Virus record (IMG/VR): IMGVR_UViG_3300027808_000009
Coordinates: 1-64,000 of that record
DNA from: a virus
Reading direction: 5' to 3' (one strand)
Length of the DNA: 64,000 bases
Shown: piece after piece, positions 21,551-24,657 of the stretch
How the letters are laid out: every line of letters starts with the position of its first letter
How positions within the stretch are numbered: the first letter of the stretch is position 1
The notes under the pieces: model-generated
What the model was told of the DNA's origin: nothing
Databases searched by the model: none
What the model saw: the letters and a program-made list of their open reading frames with translations, nothing else
Translations under genes and position numbers: made by a program

Positions 21551-21661
21551 AATAATTAATTTTTAGTGTTAAACAATTTATATCAATTTCAGTTCTAAAA
21601 TGGTAAAAGCTGCGTAGCAAAAAAATAATAAACCTCTACCAATCAAGGTAGAGGAATATAA

Positions 21662-21955
21662 TTAGAACTCGTGCAATGTAGCAGGAGCTTTTGCAAAGGA
21701 CATAGAAGATACAACCTCTGCACCCGCACCTTTCTTATGCAACATATAAGATGCATCACCGTCTTCAGGTGAAAACCAGGATACCTGCAAATCTGTAGTT
21801 AATTCTTGGATGTCTTTAGCAACACGGTACGTGTTACCTAAATCATCTACCAAGAAATTAGAACCTGTTTTAGGGTTCTTAAGGATATTCAACTCTGAAA
21901 TACCTTGTTTCTCTGCGAATGCAGAAATGCTAATTGTTTTTGAAAAACTGCTCAT
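21662..21955 (-). CDS. early protein, paralogue 2 (KNPKTG family)
   Basis: See paralogue 1. Confidence 0.8.
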   Translation of the reverse strand: MSSFSKTISISAFAEKQGISELNILKNPKTGSNFLVDDLGNTYRVAKDIQELTTDLQVSWFSPEDGDASYMLHKKGAGAEVVSSMSFAKAPATLHEF

Positions 21956-22055
21956 AACTCAAATTTTAAATAGTTAATAAATATATCAATGTCAGTTTTA
22001 AAATGGTTAAAGCTGACGCAGTCAAAAAAAAAAGAATGGGTATAACCCACTCTTG

Positions 22056-22232
22056 TTATTCATTATTACTGATATACTCACGCAATAAATGAACGTGACC
22101 CATTAGAGCATCGTGATATCCTTTAATGTAGCCAGTTTCAAATGGATCATTAGTAGTATCTATATGCGAAATCATTGACTTAGCATCATTTTCAAGATCA
22201 GCAATTATACTGTTTATAAGTTCTGTATTCAT
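22056..22232 (-). CDS. small early protein (58 aa, not in the ORF track)
   Basis: MNTELINSIIADLENDAKSMISHIDTTNDPFETGYIKGYHDALMGHVHLLREYISNNE. Has its own motif copy and terminator. Confidence 0.7.
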   Translation of the reverse strand: MNTELINSIIADLENDAKSMISHIDTTNDPFETGYIKGYHDALMGHVHLLREYISNNE

Positions 22233-22309
22233 AATCTTTAGTTTTAATTAATATTATTAATAGTTAAAAAATGGTAAAAAATAAAGGGGATGTTATTCCC
22301 CCTTAATAT

Positions 22310-22681
22310 TTATATGTCTTTAAACATAGCAACTAAGTCAGCATGGTCATCATTACCATTACTATTCTCTAACTTAGGTAACTTAGGTAAGTTAACGTCT
22401 TTACCTGAATATGCATACCAATCTATTGAACCACAACCTGAGCTTTTACTATAGGTCTCTATGACATATTTCTCAAGCATTTTCCATATATCATTACAAT
22501 ACATACCTGTTACTTTATGATATCCATCAATAGTAAGGCCATCAAATCTTGGTACATAACCCATAGTATTCCATGAGTAACCATCTTCAAGTATTCTAAC
22601 TTTTTCTGCAACAAATGTGATAACAGGAAAAGGTATAGTAGCTTCTACCTCAATCTTTTTTTTATACGTTATTGTTTTCAT
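22310..22681 (-). CDS. early hypothetical protein
   Basis: 123 aa, follows the motif copy at 22711. Confidence 0.7.
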   Translation of the reverse strand: MKTITYKKKIEVEATIPFPVITFVAEKVRILEDGYSWNTMGYVPRFDGLTIDGYHKVTGMYCNDIWKMLEKYVIETYSKSSGCGSIDWYAYSGKDVNLPKLPKLENSNGNDDHADLVAMFKDI

Positions 22682-22748
22682 AATCTTTAATTTAAATTAA
22701 TATTATTATTAGTTATAAAATGGTCCCCAAAGGGGTAAATAGTGTGCA

Positions 22749-22970
22749 TCATTTGACACACACTATTTTAAACACACCTTGAGTATATCCATTACTCATC
22801 AGTTGCTTCTTCTTCCAAAGGGCTAATGCCTTAGAAGGAAACACAAAACTCTCTAAGAGTCTTGTGTTATTGTGGTACTCAAGCCTGTACAACGGATATG
22901 ATTTTACTACCATCAATCTCAGTATATTCAGTGAACATATCAAAATAGTGGTTAGCATAATTATCCGCAT
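22749..22970 (-). CDS. early hypothetical protein (start probably internal)
   Basis: Overlaps 22879-23133. Second gene of its cassette. Confidence 0.45.
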   Translation of the reverse strand: MRIIMLTTILICSLNILRLMVVKSYPLYRLEYHNNTRLLESFVFPSKALALWKKKQLMSNGYTQGVFKIVCVK

Positions 22971-23133
22971 TCATACAACGGCAGGTAACTTTCTGCTCTT
23001 CAGGTGAACCATAGAATGAATATGTTAATTCACCCATAGTAAATGAACCCGCATATAACCAACCTCTCTTGATACCACGCATTAAATGTGTACTGTTTAA
23101 TGCTTTTTCCAATGCTAATCTAATCTCTTCCAT
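22879..23133 (-). CDS. early hypothetical protein
   Basis: 84 aa, follows the motif copy at 23152. Confidence 0.7.
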   Translation of the reverse strand: MEEIRLALEKALNSTHLMRGIKRGWLYAGSFTMGELTYSFYGSPEEQKVTCRCMNADNYANHYFDMFTEYTEIDGSKIISVVQA

Positions 23134-23193
23134 AATATATAATTTAATGACAGTTAAAAAATGGTTAAAAAAAGGGGGAATTACCCCCTATTG

Positions 23194-23517
23194 TTAAAAC
23201 AAACTAATCTCTGCTTGATTAAGTTCTTCCTGTATTTCATCAGTTACAGGTATGCTAAATACTATATGTCCTGAACATACGTCCATAACATTATCTTTAA
23301 CATAAAACCCAACACCTGAAGTACAACTGTCTCCATCATCAAGCAACATAACAGTACAAGAATAATGATCCCAACCTACATAATCTGTATCAATGAAGAT
23401 TGTACCTTCTTTGTATACTGTTTTATGTAGTGATTTAACCTCTCCTGTTACTGTTTCACCAAAGTTATCAGAACCTTGGTTAAATGCTTTTATAGCAATT
23501 TCACTTAAATTTTTCAT
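23194..23517 (-). CDS. acidic early hypothetical protein
   Basis: 107 aa, follows the motif copy at 23537. Confidence 0.7.
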   Translation of the reverse strand: MKNLSEIAIKAFNQGSDNFGETVTGEVKSLHKTVYKEGTIFIDTDYVGWDHYSCTVMLLDDGDSCTSGVGFYVKDNVMDVCSGHIVFSIPVTDEIQEELNQAEISLF

Positions 23518-23555
23518 AATAAATAGTTTTAATGACAGTTAAAAAATGGTTTATT

Positions 23556-23695
23556 AAAAAAAAGAATAACAAGTTAAACATAAAGCTCTCCTTTTTGGAA
23601 CTTTTTGCATCATTTCTCTACTTGACTTGCAAGCTTGTCAGTGCACCAAGGTGTACAAGCTTCTTGTAGAGAACAAACATTTAACTGTGTTATTC
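23556..23695 (-). ncRNA. candidate ~140-nt structured small RNA
   Basis: Occupies a whole cassette. The 5' and 3' ends pair (GAATAAC/GTTATTC and AGTTAAA/TTTAACT), there is an inner long hairpin (TTCTCTAC/GTAGAGAA, AAGCTTGT/ACAAGCTT), and it ends in U8. Confidence 0.65.
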
Positions 23696-23745
23696 AATAT
23701 GAGTTATAAAATGGTTGACTAAAAGAGAGATGACCTCTCCTTTCT

Positions 23746-23895
23746 TTAGAAAGGGAGATCATCATCATCACACGGATAAGTCATATCCGCTTGTTCTATC
23801 ATCCAAAGAGCAAAGGCTTCTTGCTCTTCAAAGATGAAGTCAGAGAGTTCTTGGTAGAACTCTCTTTCCATACGAGTGTATTCATCTTGTGTCAT
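23746..23895 (-). CDS. 49-aa acidic peptide ending DDDDLPF (SSB C-terminal-tail mimic; not in the ORF track)
   Basis: MTQDEYTRMEREFYQELSDFIFEEQEAFALWMIEQADMTYPCDDDDLPF, with 15 D/E against 2 R. Has its own motif copy (23920) and terminator. Confidence 0.75.
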   Translation of the reverse strand: MTQDEYTRMEREFYQELSDFIFEEQEAFALWMIEQADMTYPCDDDDLPF

Positions 23896-23955
23896 AATAT
23901 AAAGTATTAAGTTATAAGGAGTTATAAAATGGTAAAAAAAGGGGTATAATACCCC

Positions 23956-24114
23956 TTATTTAATCTTAACAAAGCCAAATTCTAACCATCTTTTAATAAA
24001 GTCAGTACTGTATGTATTTTTATCAGTAATAATCTCACCTGTAGTTCTATTGTTATTGGCTTTTATAATAACCTCTTCTCTGTCTTTAAAAACAAGTATA
24101 TTTCCTTTTTTCAT
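23956..24114 (-). CDS. small early protein (52 aa, not in the ORF track)
   Basis: MKKGNILVFKDREEVIIKANNNRTTGEIITDKNTYSTDFIKRWLEFGFVKIK. Follows the motif copy at 24134. Confidence 0.65.
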   Translation of the reverse strand: MKKGNILVFKDREEVIIKANNNRTTGEIITDKNTYSTDFIKRWLEFGFVKIK

Positions 24115-24175
24115 AATAATAAGTTTTAATTATAGTTATAAAATGGTGACAAAAAAAGGGGAATAATCCCCTTAA

Positions 24176-24322
24176 TTAATTTTCACTCCAAAACTCTAAT
24201 ATATAATTACCACATATATCTTTTCCCATTCCTCCATATAATTCATATAATTCCTCAACAAAATATTTTTCTCTATCTATTTCATTATTACATTCATCAT
24301 ATATAATTTTATTATACCACAT
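24176..24322 (-). CDS. small acidic early protein (likely start 24322)
   Basis: MWYNKIIYDEC...EFWSEN. The motif copy at 24353 lies inside the longer ORF-track call. Confidence 0.6.
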   Translation of the reverse strand: MWYNKIIYDECNNEIDREKYFVEELYELYGGMGKDICGNYILEFWSEN

Positions 24323-24409
24323 AATCTTTAAATTTAAGTTAATATTAATAACAGTTATAAGATGGTCACAAGAAAAAAACATAAGAGCCATTAGGCTCCT
24401 ATGTTGTTA

Positions 24410-24616
24410 TTAACTCCAACCTTTATACTTCTTCAAGTATTCAGGTGTATATTTTTCTGAGTCAGGGGTCCTAATGCCTCCGAACCAAAAGATAAATCCT
24501 ATTACACTGAAGCAAACGCACAGTGTTGGTAGCATCTCTAGGTATGCTTCCACAGCACCACCTAGAAATACACATGATACAAAGATCATGTATCTAAAGT
24601 AATTAGTATATTTCAT
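24410..24616 (-). CDS. early membrane protein
   Basis: Two hydrophobic helices. First gene of the minus arm. Confidence 0.7.
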   Translation of the reverse strand: MKYTNYFRYMIFVSCVFLGGAVEAYLEMLPTLCVCFSVIGFIFWFGGIRTPDSEKYTPEYLKKYKGWS

Positions 24617-24657
24617 AGCAATTAATTTTAATTAAAGTCAGTTCTAATATGGTCTAT

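Follow-up and report, generated by a model that had tools for sequence, protein, structure and literature searches.

A probable small non-coding RNA gene in the early-type cassette array of an uncultured phage with crAss-like proteins

CrAss-like phages rank with the most abundant known viruses, and to our knowledge their early genes, which are read by an injected polymerase, are almost entirely uncharacterised. In the crAss-like phage phi14:2, the g004-g006 intergenic regions give rise to abundant early non-coding RNAs (ncRNAs) of unknown function (Drobysheva et al., bioRxiv 10.1101/2020.03.07.982082), and this phage is the one cultured model. Promoter-early stem-loop (PeSL) junctions flank small non-essential early genes in T4-type phages (Arbiol et al. 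2010, PMC2839356). Late, overlapping phage RNAs have also been described as LUZ7 sRNA1-3 (PMC9163698).

The locus examined here is a cassette that lacks a real ORF and lies within an array of small, early-type genes. Our analysis indicates that this cassette is probably an ncRNA gene of approximately 132-140 nt, expressed early and acting in trans, with locked ends and a closing helix that doubles as its terminator.

Source genome and early-type cassette array

The source is a 117.9-kb IMG/VR virus record, and the window analysed is the first 64 kb (64,000 nt) of this record. Terminase, portal and capsid proteins matched crAss-type PHROGs in addition to distant crAss-like and Flavobacterium phages, and judging by these matches the carrier of the RNA unit is an uncultured crAss-like phage. 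A 4118-aa ORF with a DFDVD motif was found outside the window, from position 90729 onward (+). This motif is a hallmark of the crAss-like virion RNA polymerase (bioRxiv 10.1101/2020.03.07.982082), and the ORF, roughly double phi14:2 gp66 (2180 aa) in length, presumably encodes such a polymerase fused to other domains. With respect to translation, GGAG was found upstream of none of the 94 ORFs of at least 100 aa, which is below background and indicates that Shine-Dalgarno sites are not used, and the gene leaders of this phage were A-rich at positions -13 to -10 and at -3. A-rich leaders of this kind without Shine-Dalgarno sites are what we take to be Bacteroidota-style translation initiation.

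The array consists of eleven units on the minus strand (21604-24653), each arranged in the order of a GC hairpin with a T-run, a ACCATTTTATAAC-type motif, an AT leader of 19-41 nt, an ATG and a small ORF; the cassette of the RNA unit is one among these 11 and has no real ORF. The ACCATTTTATAAC motif (wider consensus ACCATTTTATAAC-T-NNN-ATT(G/A)A) occurred 18 times in the window in comparison to 6.0 expected matches, and in the whole 118-kb genome the only terminator-following copies were the 11 of the array, most of them directly 3' of a hairpin and T-run. Terminator-like sites numbered 22 vs 1.7 expected in the terminator scan, and sigma70-type promoters were not enriched (15 vs 19.3 expected). 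The motif has no -35 element and is not sigma70-like, and from its placement we infer that it acts as an array-specific promoter. Two more distant relatives had the same terminator-motif-leader-gene architecture with other motifs, suggesting that promoter and polymerase have co-evolved; this divergence of motifs between lineages would fit a phage-specific polymerase. Early arrays throughout the clade were mosaics, with frequent gain and loss of units.

Several further observations were made on genes of these arrays. The relatives with 61-64% identity in the 107-aa protein (L002:3200-4100 and L003:3200-4100) carried the repeated motifs AACTGTGC.TTACT... and TTAACATCTTATTACT. An acidic early protein of 49 aa (window 23746-23895, minus strand) has the C-terminus DDDDLPF, which is similar to the C-terminal tip of bacterial SSB, and its relatives keep a D-rich...DLPF end with 2-4 aspartates. 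A 47-aa gene (YRLEYHNNTRLLESF...KIVCVK; window 22749-22895, minus strand) has its own promoter cassette in the relatives L134 and L111. In the window it has no promoter motif and its apparent TTG start overlaps the end of an 84-aa ORF, an arrangement that appears to represent translational coupling; the same overlap is present in L165 with an ATG.

Layout, fold and conservation of the ORF-less unit

The features of the unit and of its immediate borders are given below, with RNA nucleotides numbered from the first paired base and base pairs numbered by alignment column.

23721..23741 (-), weak terminator-like hairpin followed by T4 at the end of the upstream 49-aa gene, from sequence (terminator scan: inverted repeat 23725-23739)
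23696..23715 (-), putative promoter, comprising the motif ACCATTTTATAAC (23703-23715) and a stretch of 7 nt (TCATATT) up to the first paired base, from motif counts
23564..23695 (-), predicted ncRNA body, nt 1-132, a three-way junction of P1, P2 and P3, from the MFE fold and a 44-pair consensus of 6 variants
23677..23695 (-), P1, 5' strand of the closing helix, nt 1-19, with changed pairs 11-124 (L183/L187) and 17-118
23614..23673 (-), P2, long interrupted hairpin, with compensatory pairs 37-62 and 40-59 in P2b
23582..23604 (-), P3, small hairpin of 8 bp with one bulge, with changed pair 96-111
23564..23581 (-), P1, 3' strand, nt 115-132, adjoining the U tract and the likely terminator stem, with no local hairpin in the last 50 nt
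23556..23563 (-), U8 tract, presumed 3' end, from sequence
23618..23680 (-), 20-codon ORF with its AUG inside P1, start not conserved
23538..23550 (-), promoter motif of the following cassette, which holds the 107-aa gene, downstream boundary of the RNA unit, from the motif scan

A preliminary description of this locus had proposed a whole early cassette devoted to a three-way-junction RNA of about 140 nt, and its account of the layout was borne out. The motif ACCATTTTATAAC at 23703-23715 (-) is followed by 7 nt and then by GAAUAAC at 23695, the 5' end is paired to UUUAACU-U-GUUAUUC, which immediately precedes U8 (23556-23563), and the inner helices, namely the interrupted hairpin (UUCUCUAC/GUAGAGAA and AAGCUUGU/ACAAGCUU), the CACC..GGUG helix and a small A-rich hairpin, are all present on the minus strand. 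The closing helix P1 (17 bp) joins the 5' and 3' ends. P2 is made up of P2a (8 bp), an internal loop of 3x9 nt, P2b (8 bp), P2c (3 bp) and an apical loop with a variable third base (U/A/G), and the loop of P3 is variable in both sequence and length (AAAAA vs AGUUAA). The U tract in the variants was either U6-U8 or UCUCUUUU(U). The window copy had a minimum free energy of -37.3 kcal/mol (z = -2.92), with only 2 of 200 shuffles folding as well, and three variants folded individually gave the same architecture with z values from -3.0 to -3.5. A K-turn reading of the 3x9 loop was rejected, as the motif does not fit.

Homologues of the unit were found on 23 metagenome contigs, representing 8 different sequences and at least nine gene neighbourhoods. 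Two copies were obtained from a 20-mer metagenome scan and many more from exact look-ups of the upstream 49-aa protein and variants, and a scan of species genomes added one further copy on a MAG contig. Six of the 8 variants were aligned (mean column identity of 94%) and their consensus was calculated by RNAalifold, which returned a fold of 44 pairs with none broken in any of the six sequences. Two-sided changes that kept pairing were identified at 11-124 (GC>CG) in P1 and at 37-62 (CG>UA) and 40-59 (GC>GU>AU) in P2b, and one-sided changes that kept pairing were found at 17-118 (UG>CG) and 96-111 (UG>UA). The other substitutions and both indels were confined to loops, bulges and linkers. Paired cells amounted to 100% in the consensus in comparison to 33-48% when partners were slid by 1-3 columns, and the covariation score was reached by 1 of 500 shuffles. 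The variants are close relatives (86-99% identical) and the covariation therefore rests on few events, with three pairs and approximately five independent changes in a small sample. Overall, the preliminary description had looked to homologues for covariation, and the 44 of 44 pairs kept in the consensus of six variants support its proposal of a structured RNA (about 135 nt) in which the ends pair and the helices meet at a three-way junction. In 12 of 15 genome pairs the RNA was also more conserved than the protein gene beside it, for example with 94% vs 81% identity.

The unit was complete from motif to U tract in all copies, as expected for the stand-alone cassette that had been proposed. 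It was preceded by the 49-aa gene (most often), by a gene of 52 or 64 aa or by other ORF-less cassettes, and at least five different units occurred downstream (107-, 105-, 83-, 85- or 102-aa genes, or other ORF-less cassettes), the downstream neighbour always having its own promoter and differing between contexts. Completeness of the unit in combination with these changing neighbours indicates an independent module rather than the leader or tail of any one gene. When 25 whole related viral contigs were searched by BLAST with the RNA, only the promoter motif matched, and this absence of the RNA indicates that the RNA family is narrow and dispensable; one RNA-less related contig encodes a 100% identical capsid protein. 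Searches of 162 loci by blastn-short and nhmmer gave no RNA match, and covariance model R1 run on 47 sources, including early regions of relatives, recovered known copies only. A phage GenBank collection gave no blastn match to 1.6 kb around the unit, and searching IMG/VR with a 25-mer, a gapped stem pattern and a 19-mer invariant block returned only two chance GC-rich matches.

Other cassettes in these arrays are similarly poor in ORFs. Among the loci sampled, 26 distinct ORF-poor cassettes fell into 8 families, vs 212 coding cassette instances. At least four further promoter-to-terminator families of this type were identified in the same early arrays of relatives, often beside the RNA studied here, and three or four consecutive ORF-less units were present in L166, L182 and L183. 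These families were located as follows.

Family Z, at L182:2692-2821 and L183:1595-1721
Family B, in L134/L084, L121, L125, L127 and L181 and at L182:3000-3149
Family Y, at L123:742-949, L166:2161-2368, L189:1210-1423 and L111:1906-2173
Family W, with no ATG at all, at L121:2758-2857, L125:553-651 and L182:2361-2462

Within family B, ORFs of 15, 26 and 32 aa lie in different frames due to indels, and its six sequences showed conserved hairpins with no two-sided compensatory change. ORF-less units thus form a regular cargo of these shuffling early arrays.

The 3' end of the unit is unusual. The terminator scan listed no GC hairpin at this end and no local hairpin was found in the last 50 nt of the RNA (-5.9 kcal/mol, z = 0.07), which leaves P1 as the only candidate terminator stem. 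As in an intrinsic terminator, the 3' strand of this 17-bp helix abuts a U run, ending no more than one base from U8; the two P1 strands are separated by 95 nt containing P2, P3 and linkers, which is not usual for such terminators. A long-range closing helix serving as the terminator stem would couple correct folding to 3'-end formation.

Competing readings and possible roles of the RNA

The ORFs within the unit have 20 and 19 codons, in agreement with the preliminary description, which had noted only ORFs of about 20 codons and one AUG buried in a stem, here P1. That the cassette encodes a 20-aa micropeptide (MFVLYKKLVHLGALTSLQVK), with the remainder as its 3' UTR, appears highly improbable. 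The AUG does lie 22 nt after the motif, within the spacing of the real genes of the array (19-41 nt), and an intact ORF is retained in the window type and in L182, L189 and L193, but only in these. Its start has changed from ATG to ACG in four of the six aligned variants (L165, L178, L183 and L187) and also in L184, with no other in-frame start, and this U>C change at column 17 converts a U-G into a C-G pair in P1, i.e. it improves pairing. Moreover, the AUG is buried in the 17-bp helix, and a structured tail of 60 nt is unlike any other cassette. The second small ORF is destroyed in those variants that lost the 20-codon start, and an antisense ORF of 45 aa is frameshifted by a 1-nt loop indel and matched only itself among 5.8 billion proteins. 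No ORF is therefore conserved, and the earlier view that small ORFs are not the product of the locus is upheld. We also observed the sequence AAGGAGA(G/A)CUUUAUG (window 23582-23599, minus strand), which is unchanged in all variants except for one base and stands out in a genome where such sites are avoided. Its constancy could be interpreted as AAGGAG-N6-AUG near the 3' end driving translation of a short hydrophobic peptide (MFNLLFFF...), an idea that we find scarcely credible given that the frame stays open up to the U tract and reads through the terminator and next promoter, its tail differs in each context, GGAG and AUG are both paired (in P3 and P1, respectively), and Shine-Dalgarno sites occur at 0 of 94 ORFs in this phage.

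Alternatively, the cassette may be a decaying early-gene remnant, or filler between promoter and terminator left by cassette shuffling, in line with the mosaic nature of the early arrays of this clade and with the absence of the unit from many close relatives. This is very improbable, as length and fold are constant in 8 variants and at least nine contexts, the RNA mostly has higher identity than the gene next to it and all substitutions in paired columns keep pairing, three of them being compensatory. Lost ORF starts, the kept fold and this higher identity led us to reject both the micropeptide and the remnant readings. A cis-acting device, such as an insulator/terminator, a promoter decoy that tunes polymerase flow or a recombination module, is improbable in a lesser degree: P1 and U8 form a terminator by sequence, the terminator of the upstream gene is weak (a 6-bp stem with T4), and P1 covariation fits selection for termination and could be explained by terminator function alone. 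However, two of the three compensatory pairs lie in P2b, far from the terminator, and the downstream neighbour has its own promoter and varies by context. The other array cassettes terminate with GC hairpins of 5-12 bp, so that a three-way junction of 130 nt is unnecessary for termination. The structure might also work at the DNA level, for example as an extruded ssDNA hairpin for replication or for the injected polymerase, since in the window copy the opposite strand gives an equally good fold (-37.4 kcal/mol, z = -3.9) and the phi14:2 virion RNAP prefers single-stranded templates in vitro (bioRxiv 10.1101/2020.03.07.982082). We hold this to be a most unlikely case; at four consensus pairs, among them 40-59 with its G-U intermediate, some or all variants have G-U, which would become an A-C mismatch on the other strand, and the fold is bounded exactly by the promoter motif and the U tract. 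These G-U pairs, together with the polarity of promoter and terminator, favour a minus-strand RNA over the opposite strand.

A unit that runs from promoter to U tract with its fold kept, no conserved ORF and no Shine-Dalgarno use points to an ncRNA gene, rather than to a micropeptide gene or a decayed remnant. Going by this architecture, transcription would start a few bases (7 nt) after the motif and would take place early in infection. P2 and P3 would fold first, after which the 3' strand of P1 would pair with the 5' end just before the U tract and so form the stem of an intrinsic terminator. P1 would also lock both ends, yielding a stable RNA that would then act in trans.

The conserved features of the RNA are structural, and our best but tentative guess for its likeliest mode of action is that it binds a host or phage protein, either titrating it or serving as a scaffold. 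Base pairing with host transcripts is a more doubtful proposal, and the remainder of the probability falls to a role of another kind that has not yet been imagined. Complementarity to the phage's own genome at 11 and 12 nt showed no excess (20 and 6 matches vs shuffle means of 20.3 and 5.7). The preliminary description suggested that the RNA could sequester RNA polymerase or a defence sensor, which may be entertained as speculation. It is also conceivable, if unlikely, that the RNA and the sibling ORF-less cassettes make up a swappable immediate-early RNA repertoire, produced by the injected giant polymerase, in which each member disarms a different Bacteroidota host factor (defence sensor, nuclease or host polymerase). 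Such a repertoire would be the counterpart of the arrays of protein anti-defence genes in other phages. As a compact, putatively early RNA with covariation support and sharply defined predicted ends, the molecule is small enough to be synthesised, mutated and used as bait.

Comparison with described RNAs and cassettes

Rfam gave no match for the RNA, either in the whole window at gathering score or on the RNA strand of 23500-23760 at E<=10, where 6S, Y RNA, ribozymes and Bacteroidota sRNAs were included, and ARAGORN detected no tRNA or tmRNA. No Rfam or ARAGORN match to a self-cleaving ribozyme, a riboswitch or a tRNA-like RNA was obtained. A hammerhead was considered for the UGAUG in the junction and was rejected, as the core G is replaced by A in variants and Rfam gave no match.

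The likeness to 6S RNA and Y RNA that had been put forward did not extend beyond the paired ends. The central bubble of 6S RNA mimics an open promoter, and 6S RNA binds the RNA polymerase holoenzyme and templates a product RNA. In common with the RNA described here, 6S RNA (including the Flavobacteria variant in Rfam) is small and, as predicted for ours, stable, with paired 5' and 3' ends, but it forms a rod (about 180 nt) that opens into a large central bubble, whereas ours is a three-way junction of about 135 nt whose largest internal loop (3x9 nt) lies within P2. Y RNA and YrlA also share a closing helix formed from both ends and internal modules; their lower stem, however, has conserved bulges that form the Ro-binding site, whereas the closing-helix bulges here are variable, with AC at alignment columns 6-7 deleted in three of six sequences (L178, L183 and L187). 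The Y-RNA-like bulged closing helix was accordingly not sustained, and unlike YrlA, the unit has no tRNA-like module by ARAGORN and no Rfam match. A Ro/Rsr gene was not noticed in the vicinity of the unit.

Among RNAs of other virulent phages, T4 species 1 RNA (rnaC) is reportedly about 139 nt and processed from a tRNA cluster transcript. Both rnaC and LUZ7 sRNA1-3 resemble the present RNA in being phage RNAs that measure about 100-250 nt, lack coding potential and are of unknown function, but they have no sequence or Rfam relation to it. The array shares with the PeSL cassettes repeated junctions of promoter and terminator hairpin as well as the shuffling of whole units between related phages, whereas the PeSL promoters are sigma70-like (PMC2839356) and the motif here is not, and differs between related lineages. 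PeSL also denotes the junctions, while the present finding concerns the cargo of one unit, which is an RNA.

The closest parallel is phi14:2, which like the phage studied here is crAss-like with a virion RNA polymerase and has gene-free transcription units among its early genes. Its RNAs are long and lie in a gene-free region of approximately 1.7 kb, whereas the present unit is about 135 nt, and unlike in this array no common early promoter motif was found in phi14:2 (bioRxiv 10.1101/2020.03.07.982082). A search of the first 9 kb of phi14:2 with model R1 gave no relative (best score of 10.5 bits, E = 0.6). In view of the early ncRNA precedent in phi14:2 and of the sibling ORF-poor families, a phage-encoded early small RNA is a known kind of molecule, of which the RNA described here is a new family.
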